From the IMG/VR virus record IMGVR_UViG_3300010362_000009, positions 1-41,101 of that record: a stretch of DNA of 41,101 bases; one strand, written 5' to 3'. Both the position numbers and the translations under genes were made by a program. This DNA is from a virus (lineage: Duplodnaviria > Caudoviricetes). Below the pieces are notes generated by a model. It was not told the origin of the DNA, made no database searches, and saw nothing but the letters and a program-made list of their open reading frames with translations. The stretch's first letter is position 1, and each line of letters starts with the position of its first letter. Positions 21,360-41,101 of this stretch are shown here, one piece after another.

Positions 21360-22036
21360 TGCCAATCCGAATGCAGAAACCGAGTGAAGGCGGCAACTTC
21401 TCGGTCGCGATCGAAGACCGCTTCGATATCAGCGAAGACCACGTTGTCGAGCTCATGTCGATGGACGAGTACAACGGCATCTCGAGCATCGACGGCAAGC
21501 CGTACACGTCGATCATGTGGCACTGCCGCATCTACGACGACCAGGGCATCGCGTTCCTGAACGAGATTGACCACGCGCCGTACGACTTTGTCGAGTTCTC
21601 GAGCATGAGCCTCGCGAAGGGCGCCAAGGGTCCGGCGAAGGCGAGGATGTGGGCGTCGGCGTTCCTGGCCCACGAGCTCTCCGAAGAGGAATGCGAGCGC
21701 ATCGCCGAGAACTTCGACGGCGCGCTGGTCGGCAAGAAGGCGCTGGCCTCGTTCGGCCTCGAGGACGACAAGAAGAACGGCGGCAAGAAGATGCGCTTCG
21801 CGCTGCTCCGTCCGGTGCCGGCTCGGCTCCGACCGCTGATGCGGGAGACGAACGGCTCGAGCCCGGTCGCGCCAGCGGCAACGCCGCCTCCCGCTGCGGC
21901 AGCGCCTTCAGCGCCAGGTCGCGAGACCGCGGCGCAGCGCAGGGCGCGGCTCCAGGCGGAGCTCGCGTCGATGGATAACGAAGACGACCCCGATGAGGTC
22001 GACGTGAGTGGTGCCGATGACGAACCCTTCAACTGA
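21359..22036 (+). CDS. Probable ssDNA-binding protein, 225 aa
   Basis: Beta-rich N-terminal domain, flexible Pro/Ala linker and acidic tail ending DDEPFN; located in the replication operon. Confidence 0.6.
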   Translation: MPIRMQKPSEGGNFSVAIEDRFDISEDHVVELMSMDEYNGISSIDGKPYTSIMWHCRIYDDQGIAFLNEIDHAPYDFVEFSSMSLAKGAKGPAKARMWASAFLAHELSEEECERIAENFDGALVGKKALASFGLEDDKKNGGKKMRFALLRPVPARLRPLMRETNGSSPVAPAATPPPAAAAPSAPGRETAAQRRARLQAELASMDNEDDPDEVDVSGADDEPFN

Positions 22037-23000
22037 AATTGTCGAGGCGAGGGATCAATCCCTCGCCGTTCTTTCCCCGACCGAGCAGCGCGTCCTGGTG
22101 CTGGTCGAAGAGTTCAAGCTGTCGTTCCGACGCACGCTCGAGCTCTCGATCGACCTGGGCGAGGCGCTCGAGGCACACAAGGCAACGCTCGATCACGGCG
22201 AATGGATGCCGTGGCTCGAGCAACACTTCGAGCTCGGCGACCGCATGGCGCGGCGCTTCATGGAGCTCTACACAAATCGGAAAGTTCTTTCCGATTTGCC
22301 GCCAGGGACGTCGACCGATGCCGCCATCCTGTGGCTGCGGAAGCAGCGTCGAGGTCCGCGTCCGGTTCGCATCGTTGGCGTCGACGCAGAGGCCCCTGAC
22401 AGGCCGCTGCTGCGCGGTTGCGGTCCAGACTGGTCTACAGGGGCCATCGTAAAGAGCATCGTCCTGGTGAGCTTTCCAGGGGCACGTATGGCGTTGGACG
22501 TCACGTACGGCAACGGCAACTTCTGGAGCGAGGGCGCCCCGATCCCGGTAACGGGTCACGATATGGACGAGGCCAGGGCGCCCGACGGCGTGATGGACTT
22601 CACTGACCTGAAGTACGACGACGCGACCTGGGACGTGGTCACCTTCGACCCGCCCCATCTCGCCGACGGCGGCGAGGACTCGGTGATGACCGGCAGGTTC
22701 GGCACGGTCGCGACCCAGGCGGCGCTGGACGACCTGATTATCGACGGCGTGCGCGAGGCGTGGCGCGTGTGCTCGATGGGCGTCATCGTCAAGGTGACCA
22801 ATCACGTCCACGGCCAGACGTTCCAGTACGAGCAGGCGCTGATCGAAGAGGCACTGGACTGGAAGATTCCGTACTACGACCTGGTCTACCAGTTCCGCGA
22901 CCACGCCTTCATCGACCCGTCCTGGGGCGTGCAGCGGTCGGCCTACAACAACGTGTCGGTGTACGCGGTGCTCAAGAAGGGATCACAGATTCATGGTTAA
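22017..23000 (+). CDS. DUF3102-like domain fused to a SAM-dependent (N6A/N4C-type) methyltransferase-like domain
   Basis: LGEAL..HK..LDHGEWMPWLE...RMARRFM; ALDVTYGNGNFW (motif I); DVVTFDPPH (motif IV). Confidence 0.7.
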   Translation: MTNPSTEIVEARDQSLAVLSPTEQRVLVLVEEFKLSFRRTLELSIDLGEALEAHKATLDHGEWMPWLEQHFELGDRMARRFMELYTNRKVLSDLPPGTSTDAAILWLRKQRRGPRPVRIVGVDAEAPDRPLLRGCGPDWSTGAIVKSIVLVSFPGARMALDVTYGNGNFWSEGAPIPVTGHDMDEARAPDGVMDFTDLKYDDATWDVVTFDPPHLADGGEDSVMTGRFGTVATQAALDDLIIDGVREAWRVCSMGVIVKVTNHVHGQTFQYEQALIEEALDWKIPYYDLVYQFRDHAFIDPSWGVQRSAYNNVSVYAVLKKGSQIHG

Positions 23001-24344: not shown

Positions 24345-24420
24345 TTACAAACAGAAACGCCGTCCGTGGCTTTGGGTGAGTTGGGACGGCGTTCTGTGAA
24401 AGGACTTTGGGTGTGCTCTC
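24345..24420 (-). ncRNA. Candidate antisense RNA (~75 nt) in the replicase leader
   Basis: Minus-strand TTGCCG-N16-TACTAT (24454-24427) upstream; hairpin 24356-24365/24384-24393 followed by TCTGTTTGT. Confidence 0.4.
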
Positions 24421-24455
24421 AAGTGCATAGTACGACTTCCCGCGGCGACGGCAAT

Positions 24456-27400
24456 GTGCAGTCCAGCACAAGTCGAGCCGCTCACCAGTTTGCTAACGAT
24501 GGCTTCTACGTCCTGCCGCTGTGGTGGATCGAGGACGGCGAGTGCGCCTGCCGAGCGCATGGATACAACGGGGCGTGCAAGCCCGGTAAGCATCCGATCG
24601 GCAACCTGGTCCCGAACGCGCACGCGGACGCGACCATTGATCCCGCGGTCATAACGACCTGGTTCACGCTGCACCCCAAGGCGAACGTCGGTATCGCGCT
24701 CGGCCCGTCGGGGCTGGTCGACGTCGCGCCGGACTCGATCGAGTGGTTCGCCGAGTTCGTCGGTCGCGGCCTGCCGCTGACGATGCACTTCGCCAGTGGT
24801 GGCGGCAGCGGCCACGAGCACTGGCTGTATCGACGCGGCGACATGCCTGCCGTACGGATAGCGAGGCGCGGTAAGTTCGACGTGCTGAGCGACGGCTACT
24901 GCGTTGCGCCGCCGTCGACCACCGAGCGCGAGTATCGCTGGATCGACCAGGTGGTGCCCGTCGACGTGCCGCAGTGGGTGTGCCAGTTCGTCCTGGACTA
25001 CATCATCGAACGCGACCAGGCATCCGACGAGGCGGTCGTGCCCGCTGGCACCGACGTGCCGCCGGTCGATTTGTTCGGCGATCAGTGGGCGATCTGGAAC
25101 GGCCAGGTGGCAGGCGACCGCAGCAATATGCTGGTCGACATTGCCAGGATGCTGAGCATGGCCGGCTGCACCGACGTCGAGGTCATCGCCAGCGTCCTGG
25201 CGGAGCGTGACGTGACGCTCGGACTGAACAAGTACGCGACCAGGCGCGATGCCTCGAGGCGCTACCGCGAAATCGCGCTGCGCTACGGCACGCCGCCGCT
25301 GACGGCGAAGCTGTCTGGCGCAGGTGGTTCCGCGGTACCGAACATAGGGGTTGGAACCGGGGAACCACCTGGCGCGCAAGAGGCTACCCCCTTCGGGGGT
25401 AGAGGTTCCGGCGGCTTGATCAGGTGGCGGAACCACTCAGAAACGCTGGCGATGCGCCCGCCCGCGGTGGACTGGCTGATCGAGGGCATCTTCGGGCGCA
25501 CGTTGATCACTGAAGTGGTCGCCAAGGTCAAGGTCGGTAAGACCACCTTCGTCCTGGGCGGGCTGCGCGCTGGTATCGCCGGTGACGAGCTCTACTGCGG
25601 TCGTATCGTGAGCGGTCCGTTCCGCGTGGCGTACGTCACCGAAGAGGGCGAGAGCACCTTTCTGGAGGCGATGCGGCGCTACGGGCTGAACGACCTGGTC
25701 GAGCAGGACGCCTTCTACACCGTCTTCGACTACGAGACGCTGCCAGGACCGTTCAGCAAACAGATAGACGAGCTCATCGAACATGCGACCGCGGATCAGG
25801 TTGACGTCGTCATCCTGGACACGCTGTCGATCATCGCCGGGCTGGACGAGGAAGACCACGCCGGTAAAGCTGCGACAGAAATGCACCACGTTCGACGCCT
25901 CGCCGCGGCTGGTTTCGCGGTCGGCATTCTTCGGCATAGCCGTAAGTCGGGAGGCGAGGTCGGCGACGCGGGTCGCGGCTCGAGCGCCATCAGCGGTTAC
26001 TGCGACATTCTGCTTCAGCTTGAGCCGTACAAGGGCGACGAGGACACCAGCAACTTGCGCGTGCTGAAGAGTCGCTCGCGGCTGAGCATGACCGAGCCGC
26101 TGGTTCTGGAGTTCGACAAGGAAACCGAGCGGTACACCGCGCTCGGCGTGGTGCAGACCAAAGAAGAGCGACTTGCCGAGAAGATTCAGGCGACGCTGGT
26201 CACGCACAAGGCGTTCGACTTCGACCGCGCCATGTCGACCAACCAGGTAACGATGGCGACGAAGGGCAACCGTGCCGGTATCCAGCGCGAGCTCAAGGAG
26301 ATGGGGCTGCGCGGTGACCTCCATCACGCGCAGCGCGGTCAAGCAGAGGTCTACTGGACCGACGAGCCGCTGACCGCGCACATCACTCACCAGGTGGTAC
26401 CAGCCGATTTGGAACCAGTGGAACCACCTGAACAGCAACCCCCTACGGGGGTTGAGCCCGAACCCGAAAAAGAACCAGGTGGTACCGACCTACCTACTCC
26501 CCTTAAGGGGAGGGGTCGGGGAACCACCCACAAGGAACCGAGCCCCGAAGCGGTCGCGAAACGGGCTGAAGAAAAGGCGGCGCGCGAGCTCGCTCGGCTC
26601 GAGGCGGCTGACGCCACGGCGCCGACGCTCGAGTACGTCGCGATCACCGAGACGTACAAGCTGCCGCAGTACCTCGCCACGCTGAGCACCGCGGCGTGCG
26701 CGTTGGACACGGAGACAACCGGCCTGTCGGCGCATCACCAGCGGATGCGGACGATCAACCTGTCCGACGGCGTGACCCACCTGGTCATCGACTCGTGGAA
26801 GATGACCGACCTGTCGCCGCTCCAGCGTTACCTCGACAAGGTCGGCAGCGTCAGGATGCACACGTACCTGTTCGACCTGGCGTTCCTGGCGACGCGCGGC
26901 ATTGCGGTCGACCCGAGCAAGATCGTGGACGTCAAGACCATGTCGATGGTGCTCGAGTCGAAGGAAGACTGGACCGACTATCGGCTCCAGGGCATCGCGA
27001 AGCGGCATCTCGCTGAGCACGTCGACAAGGCCGAGCAGAAGCGTGGGTGGGATGCGCCGGACCTTCGGCACGCGAAGCTGGCCTACGCCGCGGAAGACGC
27101 GCGCGTCACGTTCGCTGCCGCGGATGCGCTCGAGGCGAAGCTGCTCGCTGACGCAGACGTCGACTCGCTGAGCTACTGCCTGTCGCTCGAGCAGGACGTC
27201 CAGGCCGCGACCTGGTGGCTCGCATCCGCGGGCGTGCCGTGCGATCGAACCATGCTCAAGGACGCTATCGCGCAACAGGAGACGCTGATGGACGATCGTC
27301 TCCAGGAGCTCAATGCCATCGCCGCGGTCGGAACGGAAACGAACTGGCGTTCACCGGCGCAGGTGCTGCCGATCCTCCAGGAGCGCGGCCTCGACGTCTA

Positions 27401-28337
27401 CTCGACGGGAGTCGACGCGCTGATGGAGGCGCAGTCGGACGATCCGATTGTCGACGCGCTGCTGAAGTACCGCTCGGCGGGGACGTGTCTGGGACTGCTC
27501 CAGAAGACGCTGGCGTGCGTCGCCGACGACGGGCGCATCTATGCGTCGTTCAATCCGATCGGCGCACAGACGGGCCGTACAAGCTGCTCTGAGCCGAACC
27601 TCCAGCAGCTACCGCACGAGACGCTCGCGCGTAGCGCCATACGGCCAGGACCAGGTCGCGTGTTCGTCCGCGCCGACTACTCGCAACTGCAAATCGTCAT
27701 TGCGGCGTGGCTGTCGGACGATCCGACGATGAAGCGCATCCTGAACACGCCCGGCGGCGACGTGCATACCGCGACCGCGCAAGCGGTGGGCTGTACGCGC
27801 CAGGAGGCCAAGGCGATCAACTTCGGGTTCCTGTTCGGCGCCGGTGCTGAGACGTTCCGTCGAGAGCAGCGCAAGAACGGCATCATCCTGAGCGACGAGC
27901 AAGCTCTCGCCTACCGTCGCAAGTTCATGTCGACCTACCCGGGCATCCGTAAGTGGCACCGCGGCCTGGGGGAGTGGGGCACCGAAGCGGAGGTCATCGA
28001 CTTCACTGGCTCCGGTAGGAGGCGTCTGGCGATTTTCTCGAACAACGTCAAGGCCAACACGCCGGTGCAGATGGCTGAGGCGCATGGCTTCAAGCTGGCG
28101 CTGAAGCGCCTGTACGAGACGCGCGAGGCCGTGCCTTCGGCAAGGCTGGTGATGATGGTTCACGACGAGCTCATCGCCGAATGCGACGTCGGCGAGGCCG
28201 ACCTGGTCGGTCAGTGGCTGGTCTCGAACATGGTCGCGGCGATGCAGCCGCTGGTCGAGGGCGTCGTCGTCAGGGTCGACCCCGTAACCGTGCCGAGCTA
28301 CTCGGACGAGGACAAACGCAATGCCGATCTACGTTGA
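24456..28337 (+). CDS. Multifunctional replicase: AEP Prim-Pol primase + AAA_25/RepA-like helicase + 3'-5' exonuclease + family A DNA polymerase (~1293 aa from GTG 24456)
   Basis: GFYVLPL, GKHP, ANVGIA, GYCVAPPS; AKVKVGKTT, VVILDT, HSRK, GRGSSA; ALDTETTGL, YAAED; TGRTSCSEPNLQQLP, ADYSQ, AKAINFG, MVHDEL. Confidence 0.9.
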   Translation: MQSSTSRAAHQFANDGFYVLPLWWIEDGECACRAHGYNGACKPGKHPIGNLVPNAHADATIDPAVITTWFTLHPKANVGIALGPSGLVDVAPDSIEWFAEFVGRGLPLTMHFASGGGSGHEHWLYRRGDMPAVRIARRGKFDVLSDGYCVAPPSTTEREYRWIDQVVPVDVPQWVCQFVLDYIIERDQASDEAVVPAGTDVPPVDLFGDQWAIWNGQVAGDRSNMLVDIARMLSMAGCTDVEVIASVLAERDVTLGLNKYATRRDASRRYREIALRYGTPPLTAKLSGAGGSAVPNIGVGTGEPPGAQEATPFGGRGSGGLIRWRNHSETLAMRPPAVDWLIEGIFGRTLITEVVAKVKVGKTTFVLGGLRAGIAGDELYCGRIVSGPFRVAYVTEEGESTFLEAMRRYGLNDLVEQDAFYTVFDYETLPGPFSKQIDELIEHATADQVDVVILDTLSIIAGLDEEDHAGKAATEMHHVRRLAAAGFAVGILRHSRKSGGEVGDAGRGSSAISGYCDILLQLEPYKGDEDTSNLRVLKSRSRLSMTEPLVLEFDKETERYTALGVVQTKEERLAEKIQATLVTHKAFDFDRAMSTNQVTMATKGNRAGIQRELKEMGLRGDLHHAQRGQAEVYWTDEPLTAHITHQVVPADLEPVEPPEQQPPTGVEPEPEKEPGGTDLPTPLKGRGRGTTHKEPSPEAVAKRAEEKAARELARLEAADATAPTLEYVAITETYKLPQYLATLSTAACALDTETTGLSAHHQRMRTINLSDGVTHLVIDSWKMTDLSPLQRYLDKVGSVRMHTYLFDLAFLATRGIAVDPSKIVDVKTMSMVLESKEDWTDYRLQGIAKRHLAEHVDKAEQKRGWDAPDLRHAKLAYAAEDARVTFAAADALEAKLLADADVDSLSYCLSLEQDVQAATWWLASAGVPCDRTMLKDAIAQQETLMDDRLQELNAIAAVGTETNWRSPAQVLPILQERGLDVYSTGVDALMEAQSDDPIVDALLKYRSAGTCLGLLQKTLACVADDGRIYASFNPIGAQTGRTSCSEPNLQQLPHETLARSAIRPGPGRVFVRADYSQLQIVIAAWLSDDPTMKRILNTPGGDVHTATAQAVGCTRQEAKAINFGFLFGAGAETFRREQRKNGIILSDEQALAYRRKFMSTYPGIRKWHRGLGEWGTEAEVIDFTGSGRRRLAIFSNNVKANTPVQMAEAHGFKLALKRLYETREAVPSARLVMMVHDELIAECDVGEADLVGQWLVSNMVAAMQPLVEGVVVRVDPVTVPSYSDEDKRNADLR
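25321..25436. repeat. Origin-like repeat cluster A in the primase-helicase linker
   Basis: CAGGTGGTTCC(25321)/GGAACCACCTG(25361) inverted pair, further GGAACC/GGTTCC copies, hairpin CTACCCCC-TTC-GGGGGTAG (25384-25402). Confidence 0.7.
26391..26540. repeat. Origin-like repeat cluster B in the helicase-polymerase linker
   Basis: CAGGTGGTACC twice, GGAACCACCTG (26420), CAACCCCC-TAC-GGGGGTTG (26436-26454), palindrome CTCCCCTTAAGGGGAG (26497-26512). Confidence 0.75.
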
Positions 28338-34208: not shown

Positions 34209-37200
34209 GTGGTCGGGACGATCCTCAAGGACGACCTGCAAAGCTCGATCGAGGATCAACTCCAGAACTACGCTCGAGGGCTCCAGCAGACCGGCCAGGG
34301 AGTAGGCCAACAAGTTGGAGACACGCTCGAGGACTTGCAGCGCGCCGGTCGTGCCAAGCTTCAGGACGTCCAGAACCTGCTCAGCGACTACGCGACGCAG
34401 CAGTACAACGCGCAGCAGGAGGCGCAGCGGCTCGCCGAGCAGCAGCGTCAGCAACAGCAAGCCGCCGTTCAGCAGCAGCTATCCGACTACGCGACGCAGC
34501 TTCAGCAACCGCAACAGACGCAGCCAGGTGTAGCGCAGCCAGCGGATGTAGCAGGCGTGGCGCCGCAGCCTGCGGCGATGCCGCACTCTGAGGAACCCGC
34601 CACTGCCAGCGACCAGCGGCTCGGCTCGAAGTGGAAGACGCAATTCGACTTCGGCGCAACATACACCGGCGACTATCGGACGGGCACGCCGCACCGCGGT
34701 GTCGACCTGGTGCCGAGCAACGGCCAGGGCATCGGCACCGAAGTCGACGCTTTCGCGCCAGGCACGGTCACCAACGTGTTCCGCGACCCGGGCGGTGCCG
34801 GCGGTTTGATCGTCTACGTCAAGGACGCCGACGGACTGACGCACGCGTACATGCATCTCAACTCGGCCAATGTCCAGGTCGGGCAGCACGTTGATCGGGG
34901 TACGCAGATAGCGACGATGGGCGAGTCGGGCACGGAGGGCTCGCCCCACCTGCACTACGAGGTCCGCAAGAACGAGGCTTCGGGCGACCCGCTCGATCAG
35001 TTGATCGATCCCAGGCCGTACGAAGCTGGCACACGCCAGCCCACCGGCGGTCCGCAAGGAGCCGTCGCGAACGCCGCGACGCAGGTGACCACCACTGCTC
35101 AGAATGTAGTCGGGCAAGCCGTCCAGGGTGCGAGCGACCGCGTCCGCGGCCAGTGGGACGCGATTACCAAGGCGGCACAATCGACGGGCGTCCCGCAGGC
35201 GGTCATCTCGGCGATCATGGATACCGAGAACGGTGGTCCGCGCTCGGAGAGCTCGGCGGGCGCGCTCGGCTTCATGCAGGTGCTGCGCTCGTGGTTCAAA
35301 CCCGGCGAAGACCCGTTCGATCCACTCACCAACATCACCCGCGGCGCCGAGATTCTGCGCGACAACTTCTCGCGGTGGGGCTCCTGGGACAAAGCAGCGG
35401 CAGCGTACTTCGGCGCGATCGACAACCAGGGCAACATCACCGGCGCTCGAGACGCGACGGGCACCAGCGGTAACCAGTACGTCAACACGTTTCAGAACAA
35501 CCTCCAGAAGTACGGCGGCGCTGGTCCGCTCGGCGAGGATCAGGGCAATCCGCCGCCGATGTACGTCGGCGATCAGACCGCGCCGCAGGCGAAGCCGCCG
35601 ATCGTCTCGAACACGCCCGAAGCGCAGTCGCCGATGGCGCAGCTTCAGGGCCTGCAAGACCAGCTTGACGCGCTGCGAAACCAGCTTATTCAGGTCAACA
35701 AGCCGCCGCTCGCCGAAGGCGCACCAGCGCGGCAGGCGATCGGCCAGACGTTCAGCGACATTGGCTCCGGCGCGCAGAGCCTGTACCAGCAGGCGTACGG
35801 CACGCCCGAGCAAGCGCAAGCTCGCCAACAGCAGCAACTCGCCGAAATCCAACGGCTGAACGAAGAGTCAAACCGCCGCGCAACCGAGCAGGTGCAGAAC
35901 CTGCCTGGTTCGCTGCCGGGCATCGTTGCAGGCGGTATCTGGAACGTCTTCGCCAACCCGTCGATGGGCATTACCTGGGACCAGTACCAGGCGCAGCAGT
36001 CGGCCAAGAACAAGTGGATCGAAGACAACAACCCCGCTCGAGACGTGCTCCTGGTCGGCGGGCTGACGTCGGGTATCGCGCAGCAACTCACCGATCCGCT
36101 CCAGGTGCTGACCTTCGGGCCGACCTTCGGCGCTGGTCGCGCGATCGGCGCCGGGCTCGGCGAGACCATCGCGCAGCAGGCTGGTCGCGTGCTCACGCCA
36201 GAAGCGACCAGGTTCGTCTCGGGCGTCGCCGAGCGGCTGACCAGCGGCGCGCTGGCGAACGGCGTGCAGAACCTGCTGTTTGACGCCGAGCGTCCAGACT
36301 CTACGCTCGAGTCGAAGGTCCAGGCGTTTGCGTCGGGCGCCGCGCTCGGCGGTCTGATGGACGTCACCACGCCGCCGGTACGCGACGCGCTGGCGAAGGT
36401 GCTGCGCCCCACGCTCGAGCGTCTGCCCGAGCTCCTGCGCGCTCGGCAGCGCGGCGAGGTCGACCTGGGCTTGATCACTACCGGCGAGCCAACCGAACGG
36501 CCTACGCCGCCGCGGCCTCCCGATCGGATTGTCGAGCCGCTGATGCTGCCCAACGTCACCAGGGAGCCGTCGGCGCCGCCCGAACGGCCAGTTGCCGGCG
36601 TGCAGCGTTTACCGACGTATCTGCCCGCGGGTGCGCCAGAGGCGGGCTTCGAGGCGTTAGCGCGGCAGAGCCGCGAGGCAGCGCCCGACAACCGCGCTCA
36701 CATCGACCTGAACACGGTGCCGAAGGACATCCTGCCGTTTACCGCCGATCCGCTCGAAGCGCAGCAGGAGGGCATGGTCAAGCTCAATCCCGGCGGGATG
36801 CCGCATACCGATGATCTGCGGGCGCTGTGGGAGGCCAACCAGCACAAGCGGTCGTTCTATACCGACCAGGGCGACGAGGCGGCGAACATCGTCGGTCCCG
36901 ACAACACCGGCGAGTTCTTCACGCTGAACGCGATCAACAGCATCCTGACCAGGGTCAACAGCCAGGTCGCCGAGTCGATCCAGGCCGCGGGGCTGGTTCG
37001 CAAAGTTGCCAGGGAAGGTCGCGCTGCTGGTCTCTCGGCGAGCGAGATTCGCCAGAACATCCTGGATGCCATCGCCGACCCGAAGCAGAACCCGATCACC
37101 GGCAAGGCGGTCAACGCCAAACGCAACAGCCAGATCGAGGGCTATTCGACGGGTGGTGCGCCAGTTACCAGCGGCGCCAAGACGTCCAGCTTCGCGGGTA

Positions 37201-40200
37201 ACTACACGAGCGCCGAAGGGCGTTTCTTCGACCCGCGCATCACCAACGATCTGCACAACTGGCGGCTGATGAACGTCTCCGCGGACGAGATTCCGTCGCT
37301 CCGCAAAAACCAGCGAACAGGCGAGATGGAGTGGTTCATCGACCGCCCGCACGAGCAGAACGTCGCCAACAACGACCGTGCCTACCGCGGCACCGAGTCG
37401 GTCATCGGCGAGCTCGCGCGTGAGTACGGTGTCGACGGTTACGCGATGCAGTCGGGACTGTGGGACGGGATGCGCTCGATCCAGCGCGATCCTGAAGTCT
37501 TACGACTTTGGCAGCAAGGCCACTTCCGCGACGCGATCGAGCTCGGCAAGCAGCGCGACCTGTTCCGCGCGGTCAATCCCGACATGGAGTTCTCGGGCGA
37601 CGTCAAACAGGTCATGGACTCGATGCCGGTCCGCAGGGCGCTCGAGCAGTACGGCCAGTACCTGAAAGACCCGCTGCCGCCCGAGCTCGGTATCAGCGGC
37701 GTGGAGCGCACGTACCGCGGCAAGCGGCTTGGTCGATCCTCGAAAACGAGTCCCGCGGCGAAGCCGTCGAACCTGGCCTTCCGCGAAGAGCAGCGTCCGT
37801 ACGCGGAGGCGTCGGCGCCGCTCGTGCAGGGGCTTGACCAGGCCACCGCGGAGCGGCTTGGCTACGATCCGCAGCGTGGCATCTTCCCCTGGCTCGAGGC
37901 GTCTCACCGTGTCGTTCCGGTCGCGCCGGACGAGTACGCGGTTCACCTACCTGCTGGTAATGAGGACACGGCACGGTATGTGGCGGCTCAGGTGGGGCAG
38001 GCGAGCAACGCTGAGCGCGTCCGCATCCATGTGCCCGATTACCGTGCGGGCGACATAGTCGGCGTCGGCGCCCGCGGCACGCCCGACCAGGTCGGGCGAC
38101 TTCAAGCTGCGCTTGACAACATGGGCATCACGTCGATCGTCGGAACGGGTAAGCGGTCGCTTCAGGTGCCACTTGAACGAGTGGGAGACACGCGCACGTT
38201 GAATGCCGTCCAGGACGCGGCTATCTCGATCGGCTTCCCCGAAGACCAGGTCGGGACGTATACCGGGAGGACCAGTGACGTTCCAAGATCAGCCTACGCC
38301 GCCACCAGCGCCGAGCTCGCGCCGACCTTTGCGCCCACTTCCGCCGAACGATCCGATCTACTCCAGCGGGGCCTGGGTGCTGTTCCCGCGCAACGCGGAC
38401 CGCCCGCCGTCGTCCGCGGTCGGCAACGGGGCGAGTCCTACCTTCCGTTCACCCTCAATGTCGGAGGCGCCGTCGCCGGTGGCTATGCCGGAAACGTCGC
38501 CACCCCCGAGTCAGCCAGTCCAGAGGAACGGCTCCGCAACATCGGGCTCGGAGCTACCGCAGGGTTACTCGGAACCGCAGCCATAACCCGCGGCGGGCTC
38601 AGACCCGCGCTGGAGCGCGCAGGACGCGAATCTGAGGGGTTTCGCGCGCCGGAGGCCCGACAGGGGCCAGAGCTCAGAGCGACGACACAGGAGCCTCCTG
38701 GAGGCCCTACAGAGCGTCCTACGACCGTGGGTGGTCGCGAGCCGCGCTCGCTCGAGGAAGTCCACTCGAATCCCTACGCGCTGCGCGAGGCGCAGCCCAA
38801 CGAAACGCCGATGACGCCCGACGAGATGTTCGACTACGGCGGCGAGCTCGAGCAGCGGATGCAGGACGTCCAGAACCGCCGTGACGCGATCGATGAAGCG
38901 ATCCGCAACCCCGGTCAGAAGATCGAGCGCCCGCGGTGGGCAGGCGGTCTGACCAATCTCCAGGTCGCCGAGATTGCCCGCCGTGCAGGAGCGAGCCCCT
39001 ACGAAGAGGGTTGGTACGACCGCGTTGGTCTCGAGCAGGGCTCGGGCGAGGTCCGCGACGTGCTGCGCGAGAGCGGCATCACCGACATTCCCAAGCTGCG
39101 CCAGCGCGAGCTAAGCCCCGCCGAGCTCCGCGCCGAGCGGACCAGACTGGACCGCGAAATCCAGGACATAACCAGCGCCTACGATCAGATGACCAACGCG
39201 CCCGCCGAGCCGAACCTGGTGCGCGTCCAGGGCGCCGAAGAGGCGGCTCGAGCCGCTGCGCCTGAACCGCTGCCGTTCGATACAGGTGCGCCAGAGCCGG
39301 TCACGCCAGGAGAGGCGCAGGGCGGTATGGACGAGGGCGCTCGGTTGGCGCAGGAAATCGTGCTGTCGAAGGGCCGCGGCACGATTCGCTCTGGCGTCGG
39401 CACAGTCAGCGGCGAGTTCGGTCGCGTGCGCGCGACGGCGCTGGTCTCGAGCGAGGCGATTAAACGCGCCACAGAAACGCCGCCGTCGGCGCGTACCGCG
39501 GCGAACATGCCCAACCTGGACGCGCTGCTCGAGGGCGAGCCTGAGATAGCGGCGCAGATTCGACAGGCCGCGGAAGACAACCCCGACCTGTTTGAAGCCT
39601 ATCGGCAGGGCGTGATCAGCATGGACTCGCTCCGCAACGACCTGGCGAAGCGCGTCGGCATGACCGTCCAGGACTGGAACAAGACCAAGATCGGCCAGGG
39701 CTTCAACCCCGAAGAGTTGATGGCACTTCAGGCAGCGGCGGTCGAGCAAGCGGGTCGGATGATGGACACGGCGGAGGCGATCATCGCCAAAGGCGGCGTG
39801 GACAACCTGTCTCCCGAAGAGCTCGTGTTCTCGGCAGGCACGCTCGCCGACGCGAACAAGATTCTCGCCGTCGCCAGGGGTGGCAGAACGACCGCGGGGC
39901 GCACGCTGAATGCGCTGAAGCAACGCTTCGATCGGACGCTAGCGTCGGATATCACCGCGGCGAACGAGCGCAAGGCGGCGCAGCAGACCGCGCAGCAGGC
40001 TCGTAGAGCAGCGGCCAGGGCGACGACCGTCCTTGCCAAAGGCAGGGAACTTGAGCGCGAAGCGACGACCGCCAAGGCGGAGGCCAGCCGCAACGGAGCG
40101 CCGAAGAACATCCTCGAGCAGATCGACCAGGCGTACGCCGAGCTCGATCGGTACAACGCCATGACGCTGCACGAGAAGGGCGCCGAGTTCGATCGGCTCA

Positions 40201-41101
40201 AGGCGGAGCGCGCCGCGGCAGCGGCGAACCGGAAGGCGAAGGTCCGCTCGGCGCCCGAAGAGCTCCTGAGCGCGCTACGCGCCGAGCTCAAAGCCGAGCA
40301 GGACAATTTCGCCAAGCGCAAAGATACCTGGGAGACGATGGCGTTTTGGGACTCGAAGCAGTTCGAGAACGCGATGGCGAAGCGGACTGCGTTCCGCGGC
40401 CAGCTTTACATCGAGCAGCAGCGCAAGGTTGCCAACATCGCCGCGAAGCAGGCCGAAAAGGACGCGGCTCGAGCGTTCGACCAGGAGCTCCAGCGGCGCG
40501 GCAATCAGCAGGCCAAGGCAGAGAAGCTGCTCGAGGCGATCGGCGGTCGCGAAGTGACGACCGATATGCTTCGCAACTTCGTCGCGGCGATGGCTGATCC
40601 CGCTCCTGATGCTGCCGCCAAGTTCCTGAAGGGCATGGCGAAGCCGTCGAATTGGGCTCGGGCGTCGATCATTCGCCTGGCAGGACTCCTGTCTGGGCCG
40701 ATAACCCACGCCGCAAACATGGGTGGCAATACGGCTCGAGCGGTCGTGGAAGTGCCAGTTCATGCGACCGCGATCGGCATTGATGCCGCGCGTGCTGCGG
40801 TCACTGGCGGCGAGCGTCAGGCATATATGGCTGAGCTCCTGCCAATGGTCAAAGCCTGGTCGCCAGGGTTCTACGCGCAGCTACCCAATGCGCTGCGCGT
40901 GCTCAAGACCGGCATCGATCCGCGCGAAGCGGCAGACCTGTCCAAAGTGCGGGCGGGCTTCGGCGTCAACCCGGTCGTGGATGCCACGATGGAAATGCCG
41001 CTGCGGGCGCTGAAAGCGGAAGACGTGCTGTTCCGCGGCGCCGCGTACGCCATGCACGCGCAGCGTGTGGCGACCAGGGAGGCGATCAAGGAAGGCTTTA
41101 C
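34209..41101 (+). CDS. Giant multidomain virion/ejection protein (continues to 1468; ~2,745 aa) with M23 peptidase and lytic transglycosylase domains
   Basis: Frame read from GTG 34209; the ORF track lists no stop-terminated ORF in this frame. HRGVD...YMHL...PHLHYEV (M23, ~34690-34970); AIMDTENGG...GALGFMQV...NITRGAEIL...AAAYFG (SLT, ~35150-35420). Confidence 0.9.
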   Translation, partial: MVGTILKDDLQSSIEDQLQNYARGLQQTGQGVGQQVGDTLEDLQRAGRAKLQDVQNLLSDYATQQYNAQQEAQRLAEQQRQQQQAAVQQQLSDYATQLQQPQQTQPGVAQPADVAGVAPQPAAMPHSEEPATASDQRLGSKWKTQFDFGATYTGDYRTGTPHRGVDLVPSNGQGIGTEVDAFAPGTVTNVFRDPGGAGGLIVYVKDADGLTHAYMHLNSANVQVGQHVDRGTQIATMGESGTEGSPHLHYEVRKNEASGDPLDQLIDPRPYEAGTRQPTGGPQGAVANAATQVTTTAQNVVGQAVQGASDRVRGQWDAITKAAQSTGVPQAVISAIMDTENGGPRSESSAGALGFMQVLRSWFKPGEDPFDPLTNITRGAEILRDNFSRWGSWDKAAAAYFGAIDNQGNITGARDATGTSGNQYVNTFQNNLQKYGGAGPLGEDQGNPPPMYVGDQTAPQAKPPIVSNTPEAQSPMAQLQGLQDQLDALRNQLIQVNKPPLAEGAPARQAIGQTFSDIGSGAQSLYQQAYGTPEQAQARQQQQLAEIQRLNEESNRRATEQVQNLPGSLPGIVAGGIWNVFANPSMGITWDQYQAQQSAKNKWIEDNNPARDVLLVGGLTSGIAQQLTDPLQVLTFGPTFGAGRAIGAGLGETIAQQAGRVLTPEATRFVSGVAERLTSGALANGVQNLLFDAERPDSTLESKVQAFASGAALGGLMDVTTPPVRDALAKVLRPTLERLPELLRARQRGEVDLGLITTGEPTERPTPPRPPDRIVEPLMLPNVTREPSAPPERPVAGVQRLPTYLPAGAPEAGFEALARQSREAAPDNRAHIDLNTVPKDILPFTADPLEAQQEGMVKLNPGGMPHTDDLRALWEANQHKRSFYTDQGDEAANIVGPDNTGEFFTLNAINSILTRVNSQVAESIQAAGLVRKVAREGRAAGLSASEIRQNILDAIADPKQNPITGKAVNAKRNSQIEGYSTGGAPVTSGAKTSSFAGNYTSAEGRFFDPRITNDLHNWRLMNVSADEIPSLRKNQRTGEMEWFIDRPHEQNVANNDRAYRGTESVIGELAREYGVDGYAMQSGLWDGMRSIQRDPEVLRLWQQGHFRDAIELGKQRDLFRAVNPDMEFSGDVKQVMDSMPVRRALEQYGQYLKDPLPPELGISGVERTYRGKRLGRSSKTSPAAKPSNLAFREEQRPYAEASAPLVQGLDQATAERLGYDPQRGIFPWLEASHRVVPVAPDEYAVHLPAGNEDTARYVAAQVGQASNAERVRIHVPDYRAGDIVGVGARGTPDQVGRLQAALDNMGITSIVGTGKRSLQVPLERVGDTRTLNAVQDAAISIGFPEDQVGTYTGRTSDVPRSAYAATSAELAPTFAPTSAERSDLLQRGLGAVPAQRGPPAVVRGRQRGESYLPFTLNVGGAVAGGYAGNVATPESASPEERLRNIGLGATAGLLGTAAITRGGLRPALERAGRESEGFRAPEARQGPELRATTQEPPGGPTERPTTVGGREPRSLEEVHSNPYALREAQPNETPMTPDEMFDYGGELEQRMQDVQNRRDAIDEAIRNPGQKIERPRWAGGLTNLQVAEIARRAGASPYEEGWYDRVGLEQGSGEVRDVLRESGITDIPKLRQRELSPAELRAERTRLDREIQDITSAYDQMTNAPAEPNLVRVQGAEEAARAAAPEPLPFDTGAPEPVTPGEAQGGMDEGARLAQEIVLSKGRGTIRSGVGTVSGEFGRVRATALVSSEAIKRATETPPSARTAANMPNLDALLEGEPEIAAQIRQAAEDNPDLFEAYRQGVISMDSLRNDLAKRVGMTVQDWNKTKIGQGFNPEELMALQAAAVEQAGRMMDTAEAIIAKGGVDNLSPEELVFSAGTLADANKILAVARGGRTTAGRTLNALKQRFDRTLASDITAANERKAAQQTAQQARRAAARATTVLAKGRELEREATTAKAEASRNGAPKNILEQIDQAYAELDRYNAMTLHEKGAEFDRLKAERAAAAANRKAKVRSAPEELLSALRAELKAEQDNFAKRKDTWETMAFWDSKQFENAMAKRTAFRGQLYIEQQRKVANIAAKQAEKDAARAFDQELQRRGNQQAKAEKLLEAIGGREVTTDMLRNFVAAMADPAPDAAAKFLKGMAKPSNWARASIIRLAGLLSGPITHAANMGGNTARAVVEVPVHATAIGIDAARAAVTGGERQAYMAELLPMVKAWSPGFYAQLPNALRVLKTGIDPREAADLSKVRAGFGVNPVVDATMEMPLRALKAEDVLFRGAAYAMHAQRVATREAIKEGF
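38275..38586 (+). CDS. Candidate overprinted gene in the +1 frame of the giant gene, 103 aa
   Basis: GGGAGG (38265-38270) then GTG; the GC3 bias moves to this frame over 38341-38433. Confidence 0.45.
   Translation: MTFQDQPTPPPAPSSRRPLRPLPPNDPIYSSGAWVLFPRNADRPPSSAVGNGASPTFRSPSMSEAPSPVAMPETSPPPSQPVQRNGSATSGSELPQGYSEPQP
40979..41101. repeat. Terminal direct repeat, copy 2 (identical to 1-123)
   Basis: Exact match to the window start. Confidence 0.95.

Follow-up and report, generated by a model that had tools for sequence, protein, structure and literature searches.

The window, by which we mean the whole 41,101-nucleotide stretch of viral DNA analysed here, covers a phage genome in full: its record lists direct terminal repeats and a completeness of 100%, and the ends overlap by 123 bases. 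Capsid and terminase genes are encoded by this 41-kb genome. Because of the terminal overlap, a 2297-residue M23 peptidase/SLT reading frame (34209-41101) likely continues into the reading frame at 2-1468, which would give one protein of about 2,700 residues; the joined protein has a weak match to an internal virion protein. Three tetranucleotides are rarer in the window than expected (GGCC, 205 seen and 340 expected; CCGG, 178 and 289; ACAG, 59 and 143), which possibly reflects restriction-site avoidance. A weak hint as to the host comes from a 97% identical fragment (P0121) on a 2.3-kb contig, which is named from a Chloroflexota metagenome bin.

The gene of interest is an open reading frame at 24366..28337 (+ strand, as for all the features of this gene described below), with 1323 residues counted from the first GTG. 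The protein has 1293 residues in the protein database, implying a start at about 24456. It is a fused replicase, consisting of a Prim-Pol (AEP primase-polymerase) domain (PF09250; residues 40-204, 24483..24977, E 8.9e-22), an AAA_25 P-loop domain that is predicted to be a helicase (PF13481; residues 362-529, 25449..25952, E 7.8e-15), a 3'-5' proofreading exonuclease (PF01612; residues 775-926, 26688..27143) and an Aquificae/apicoplast-like PolA polymerase domain (PF00476; residues 968-1293, 27267..28244, Pfam E 2.7e-49). No other PF00476 match occurs in the genome. In the exonuclease, D781, E783, D837, Y907 and D911 are conserved, and the catalytic residues are kept in 25/25 rows of the clade described below, position 837 being Asp in 23 and Glu in 2. 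The AlphaFold model of the polymerase is confident (pLDDT 96.8) and has the PolA fold, with TM scores of 0.7-0.8 to PolA structures.

The AAA_25 helicase segment has been exchanged among otherwise near-identical replicases (window 25449-26200 compared with L001, and L007 compared with L009), with a pN of 0.34 in the exchanged segment against 0.01-0.02 in the remaining domains. Elsewhere the helicase slot is filled by DUF3987 (P0021-P0023 and P0241) or by D5-type domains (P0032). Upstream of the replicase, positions 22008-23000 of the window encode a DUF3102 protein with DNA methyltransferase PHROG matches, and in 8/8 related loci compared the replicase is likewise preceded by related genes.

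Active-site residues of the phage PolA

The register was set by alignment with Aquifex PolA and PfPREX at the motifs, and residue numbers were counted along the Klenow chain, which yields E710, Y766, N845, Q849, G850, A852 and D854 as the equivalent positions. Motif A, DYSQLQIV (27675..27698), retains the catalytic Asp1104 (D705 in E. coli), while Gln1109 (codon CAA, 27690..27692) occupies the steric-gate position E710 and Val1111 (27696-27698) replaces R712. Motif B on the O helix, RQEAKAINFGFLFG (27798..27839), retains Arg1145, Lys1149 and Phe1153 (R754, K758 and F762), and has Phe1157 (codon TTC, 27834..27836) in place of Y766. Motif 6, NTPVQMAEAH (28056..28085), is predicted to form one helix. 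It keeps Asn1231 (N845) and Gln1235 (Q849), but Met1236 (28071-28073) replaces G850 and His1240 (28083-28085) replaces D854, and at the position of A852 there is Glu1238 (codon GAG, 28077..28079), likely a compensating carboxylate. Motif C, HDE (H881, D882 and E883; 28161..28169), is intact, and Arg1071 of the TGR motif (R668; 27576..27578) is retained. Rechecking of the coordinates confirms the motifs described in the initial annotation, and both the alignment and the Klenow count agree with its assignment of the Gln to E710 and the Phe to Y766.

Glu at 710 and Tyr at 766 have been held to be universal in family A. They are called universally conserved in PMC3715850 and PMC4882331, and PMC13492167 has Glu "typically" in the gate role. 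Both are absent here. Gln1109 and Phe1157 thus mark a variant pocket, and membership of family A stands by the fold and the catalytic residues.

The variant is shared by a clade of 28 rows, comprising the window and 27 homologues (65-84% identical where full-length, with one fragment at 97%). Q710, F766, E852 and H854 are found in 28/28 rows, as are the catalytic D705, K758, F762, H881, D882 and E883, and R668 is found in the 27/27 rows that cover it. The close homologues therefore do not have Glu and Tyr at these positions, and the substitutions are genuine. Further changes fixed in the clade, on which the initial annotation laid no stress, are R712V, G850M and D854H, which lie near the pocket and are left unexplained by the exchange at 710 and 852. 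A C-terminal Trp to Tyr change (Tyr1312, 28299-28301) is also fixed. One row, P0020 from locus L011, deviates in motif 6 at N845, Q849 and 850; it differs from L007 by non-synonymous differences only (pN 0.007, pS 0), and the deviations are probably sequence errors.

Codon usage varies at the two key positions among the 13 loci compared, Gln1109 being encoded by CAA in 5 and CAG in 8, and Glu1238 by GAG in 10 and GAA in 3. Of 11 pairs compared, 9 are informative and give the polymerase domain a dN/dS of 0.06-0.34; the remaining 2 have no synonymous differences. The gene is under purifying selection. Given the sharing of the residues throughout the clade, the synonymous variation in their codons and the dN/dS below 1, we conclude that this is a selected state, and not error or decay.

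Covariation of positions 710 and 852

To place these residues in a wider context, an alignment was made of 387 proteins, these being the best 120, 120 and 150 matches listed in three homologue searches; two truncated proteins (P0380 and P0208) were dropped, leaving 385 rows. Position 710 lacks an acid in 57 of these, being Gln in 54 and His in 3, and every one of the 57 carries an acid at 852 (55 Glu, 2 Asp). The other 328 have an acid at 710, and only 3 of them have an acid at 852. The corresponding counts for Phe766 are 54/57 and 35/328. Among 149 representatives at 50% identity, an acid at 852 is found in 22/22 against 1/127, and Phe766 in 19/22 against 17/127. In a weighted MI-APC analysis the pair 1109-1238 ranks 5 of 52,391 column pairs (z 8.5) and the pair 1109-1157 ranks 62; with the full set the ranks are 6 and 49, of 46,453. 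Pairing of R712V with D854H is unsupported (rank 2034). Met850 is found only in Gln/His710 enzymes and in one Asp710 enzyme of the 385-row set, and in 0/325 Glu710 enzymes. Three enzymes have Asp at 710 (P0048, P0069 and P0375). Two of them are bacterial Pol I, each with Ser852; the other is of phage type and combines Val852 with Met850.

The sampling of these 385 rows leans toward the kin of the query, and a single clade supplies 28 of the 57 that have no acid at 710. Trees were therefore needed. The trait columns were deleted before every tree was built, and the change counts that follow do not separate gains from reversions. With FastTree and 221 of the 385 rows there are 11 changes at 710, 6 of them forced by starred branches; position 852 follows 710 in 6/6 independent pairs (p 0.03), and 766 in 3.5. 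The 157 rows with complete exonuclease and polymerase domains give 10 changes, 7 forced by well-supported branches, with 852 following in 7/7 independent pairs (p 0.016) and 766 in 3.9. Exonuclease plus thumb alone gives 12 changes (4 forced; all 4 independent pairs agree, p 0.125), and palm plus fingers alone gives 10 (5 forced; all 5 agree, p 0.0625), numbers of pairs that are too small to reach significance. A quick IQ-TREE search on 43 rows gives 8 changes, 7 of them forced; these rows are 21 with Gln or His, the Glu rows nearest to them in the earlier tree, and P0304. AU tests reject a single clade, with p 2e-96 for exonuclease plus polymerase and 8e-4 for palm plus fingers. The 710/852 pair has changed at least seven times on the tree. 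A single origin that spread by swapping of a palm-fingers module was also considered and rejected, since the palm plus fingers tree itself needs 7-10 changes and rejects one clade. Several of the Q710 rows are on long end branches, and others are on ordinary ones (0.23-0.37).

Viral contigs and bacterial genomes were then scanned independently, using as query motif A with Gln only, position 852 being read afterwards. The viral contigs gave 16 matches, of which 7 are not PolA and 9 are PolA of a distant lineage, representing about 6 distinct sequences. E852 is present in the 8/8 of these that reach motif 6, and F766 in 9/9. The proteins of this lineage (L042, L045-L049, L051, L052 and L055) are about 620-630 residues long and have Q710, F766, E852 and G854; a blastn search with L047 gave no match among cultured phages. 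In cultured phages, tblastn gave no polymerase above about 35% identity, and the 4/4 checked records retrieved by the motif A query have E710 and Y766, the exchange not being found among them.

The bacterial genomes gave 93 matches, of which 20 were dropped (12 incomplete, 8 chance or unreadable), leaving 73 PolA with a readable motif 6. E852 is found in 71/73, and Tyr766 is kept in 70/71 of these. The set consists mostly of full-length Pol I from Candidatus Enterousia-type Alphaproteobacteria and is largely one lineage, with L084, L127 and L115 as Q710 enzymes outside it. In a sample of the Enterousia order, E852 occurs in 11/11 Q710 enzymes against 0/11 readable E710 enzymes, and in a sample of the class it occurs in 0/24 readable E710 enzymes. 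There are two counter-examples, the bacterial L103 and L108, where Q710 is accompanied by Ser or Ala at 852. In both, the Gln codon is a lone CAG, and their relatives all have Glu (0/10 and 0/9 share the Gln), so that these exceptions may be sequence errors or private mutations. The single-chromosome records L057 (about 1.0 Mb) and L113 (about 0.7 Mb), both Q710/E852, have one PolA match each.

These results bear on two proposals of the initial annotation. The suggestion that the new Glu may compensate for the Gln is well supported by the alignment counts (57/57 against 3/328), by the 7/7 independent pairs and by the rank of 5 among 52,391 column pairs. The proposal that Gln and Phe are a co-evolved pair fared less well: the two do occur together throughout the clade, but Phe766 also accompanies E710 in 35/328 enzymes, it follows Q710 in no more than about 4 of the 7 independent pairs, and it is missing from 70/71 of the bacterial Q710/E852 PolAs. 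Q710/F766 is thus weak as a co-evolving pair, and on the sequence evidence the coupling partner of Q710 is the Glu at 852, Phe1157 being coupled only loosely to Gln1109.

Probable function of the variant pocket

On the basis of these observations, it is probable that the fused replicative enzyme of the phage is intact, that Glu1238 likely compensates for Gln1109 in its family A polymerase domain, and that it works as an ordinary DNA polymerase. The nucleotide pocket would then have been redesigned repeatedly in evolution, in a form that works, and the exchange is likely not a sign of RNA-laced or exotic DNA.

Published measurements on Klenow suggest how this may work. Table 1 of PMC3715850 gives a closing constant K2 on the correct dNTP of 0.52 for E710Q against 6.1 for wild type, with a Kd2 of 230 against 0.83 uM; for rUTP there is no gain in closing (0.056 against 0.083). 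The same source describes E710Q as a mutator with a low incorporation rate. Since E710Q loses dNTP closing without any gain for rUTP, the cost of Gln would appear to be the lost charge, with the blocking shape remaining. Gln is isosteric with Glu, and would thus still block a 2'-OH, so that ribonucleotides are likely rejected. The model places Asn1231, Gln1235 and Glu1238 at i, i+4 and i+7 of one predicted helix; because of this spacing (i+3 from Gln1235 and i+7 from Asn1231) Glu1238 should face residue 710. The KlenTaq residues N750, Q754 and E615 have common water-mediated contacts with the incoming base, according to PMC7155079. Glu1238 would restore the charge in the pocket-floor network, which is needed for closing on the correct dNTP.

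The existence of 3 enzymes with both E710 and E852, and of almost none with Q710 alone, suggests that the acid at 852 may have come first and E710Q afterwards. Klenow Y766F behaves much like the wild type, though its closing is easier, with a K2 of 9.6 in the table already cited (PMC3715850). Y766F may be an optional change, made before or after the others when less depends on the hydrogen bond between E710 and Y766, and it may aid closing.

The initial annotation had suggested that sugar selectivity or fidelity may be altered, which we regard as the less likely reading. In one form the rebuilt pocket relaxes sugar selectivity, either allowing insertion of rNTPs or extending the mixed primers from the fused Prim-Pol more readily. 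The arguments for it are that E710 is the known gate against rNTPs (PMC3715850, PMC13492167), that the clade has the additional changes R712V, G850M and D854H, that a six-frame search of the genome gave no PF02867-type ribonucleotide reductase match, and that an AEP primase is fused to the polymerase. Against it, Gln equals Glu in bulk, the Klenow E710Q data just cited show no better closing on rUTP, the same exchange occurs in bacterial Pol I that is unfused and is the sole PolA match of its genome, and E710 is kept in most fused relatives. Relaxed selectivity is on balance unlikely, and no greater weight is to be given to the idea that it would be of advantage where the host grows slowly and its dNTP pools are low. 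The fuller version, in which the clade pocket (Q710, V712, F766, M850, E852 and H854) belongs to a PolA of nature that proofreads, is relaxed in its choice of sugar and takes over directly from the primase, is doubtful. If it were true, the enzyme would accept ribonucleotides or 2'-modified nucleotides, and we would have either a phage lineage with RNA-containing DNA or a ready-made polymerase for modified nucleic acids.

It is improbable that the exchange is only partly compensated, giving a working but slower or more error-prone enzyme that is tolerated through its intact proofreading domain. The mutator character and low rate reported in PMC3715850 for Klenow E710Q would fit, as would the long end branches of several Q710 rows and the fixed exonuclease residues. 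However, deep clades are fixed for the state, which has repeatedly originated, the branches of other Q710 rows are of ordinary length, and purifying selection is strong.

It is very improbable that the pocket is adapted to a modified base in the manner of DpoZ from the 2-aminoadenine phages. Phe is found at the Y766 position (B4) in both DpoZ clades, the phiVC8-like and the Wayne-like, as it is in the phage PolA (PMC8599892, PMC10201439), and many reading frames of the genome have no annotation. On the other hand, six-frame searches of this 100% complete genome gave no match to PurZ/PurA (PF00709), HD (PF01966), thymidylate synthase or FolE, and open reading frame scans likewise found no marker genes, on which grounds DpoZ or another base modification was rejected. 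The phage genome, without purZ or an HD-domain gene, differs in this from those with DpoZ, and its polymerase belongs to another subfamily: the phiVC8-like DpoZ has Leu at 762 where the phage PolA has Phe, and the nearest structures are Aquifex PolA and apPOL, not DpoZ. F766 also occurs in 35/328 E710 enzymes, the exchange is found in chromosomal Pol I too, and the under-representation of GGCC and CCGG hints weakly that the DNA meets restriction. The passages of PMC8599892 and PMC10201439 that were consulted contain no description of Gln at 710 in DpoZ.

Finally, sequencing error or an inactive, decaying polymerase domain is scarcely credible and is ruled out at the sequence level, since the uncultured assembly as source and the crippling of Klenow by E710Q alone have to be set against the 28/28 rows, the synonymous codon variation, a dN/dS well below 1 and the fact that this is the sole PolA match in the genome.

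For the preferred reading, in which Glu1238 compensates for Gln1109, the wider meaning is that the union of Q710 with an acid at 852, in natural enzymes under selection and in many separate lineages, points to second-site suppression. Such enzymes would split the two roles of E710, namely the block of the 2'-OH by shape and the provision of a carboxylate for closing on the correct dNTP. Among these lineages the phage contributes one that is Aquificae-like and fused to primase and helicase domains, with three additional pocket changes, and within that one group the exchange has changed repeatedly. No description of a natural Q710/E852 polymerase was found in the open-access literature, and a 2026 preprint on T7 (10.64898/2026.05.20.726624) discusses compensation for position 762 only. 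For annotation, neither Gln at the gate nor Phe766 is by itself evidence that an enzyme is dead, incorporates RNA or makes Z-DNA.

Comparison with known polymerases

The best matches of the phage PolA, by both sequence and fold, are the PolA of Aquifex pyrophilus (PDB 8jrb) and Plasmodium PREX/apPOL, although the identity in Foldseek is only 21-25%. 8jrb and apPOL keep E710, Y766 and QGT[GC]AD, all of which are absent from the phage PolA. The fusion partners also differ, being an AEP Prim-Pol and AAA_25 in the phage, a TOPRIM-helicase in PREX and DUF927 in the 3173 Pol. N-terminal primase/helicase fusions have already been described for the Aquificae-like group, in PMC10201439 and PMC7689252. 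Cluster #8 of Czernecki et al. 2023 (Hot Spring 1/Aquificae-like; PMC10201439), which includes the 3173 Pol of 'Pyrovirus' (PMC7689252), resembles the phage PolA in having an exonuclease and polymerase without a 5'-3' nuclease, and Phe762. The phage PolA is classed here as Aquificae-like only, rather than as a member of cluster #8 or its twin, cluster #10.

Compared with Klenow, the phage PolA has the same catalytic motifs. The two substitutions made in the laboratory, E710Q and Y766F (Hohlbein et al. 2013, PMC3715850), are both natural in the phage enzyme, which adds A852E, R712V, G850M and D854H under purifying selection.

The Candidatus Enterousia-type Pol I has Q710 and E852 as in the phage PolA, but it is a full-length, chromosomal enzyme of separate origin that keeps Y766, R712, G850 and D854. 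No characterisation of these Q710/E852 enzymes was found in open-access papers. The Enterousia-type Pol I (L057-L149) also has Ser in place of the motif B Gly that follows F762, and this Ser is shared by the E710 sister enzymes L214, L215 and L217.
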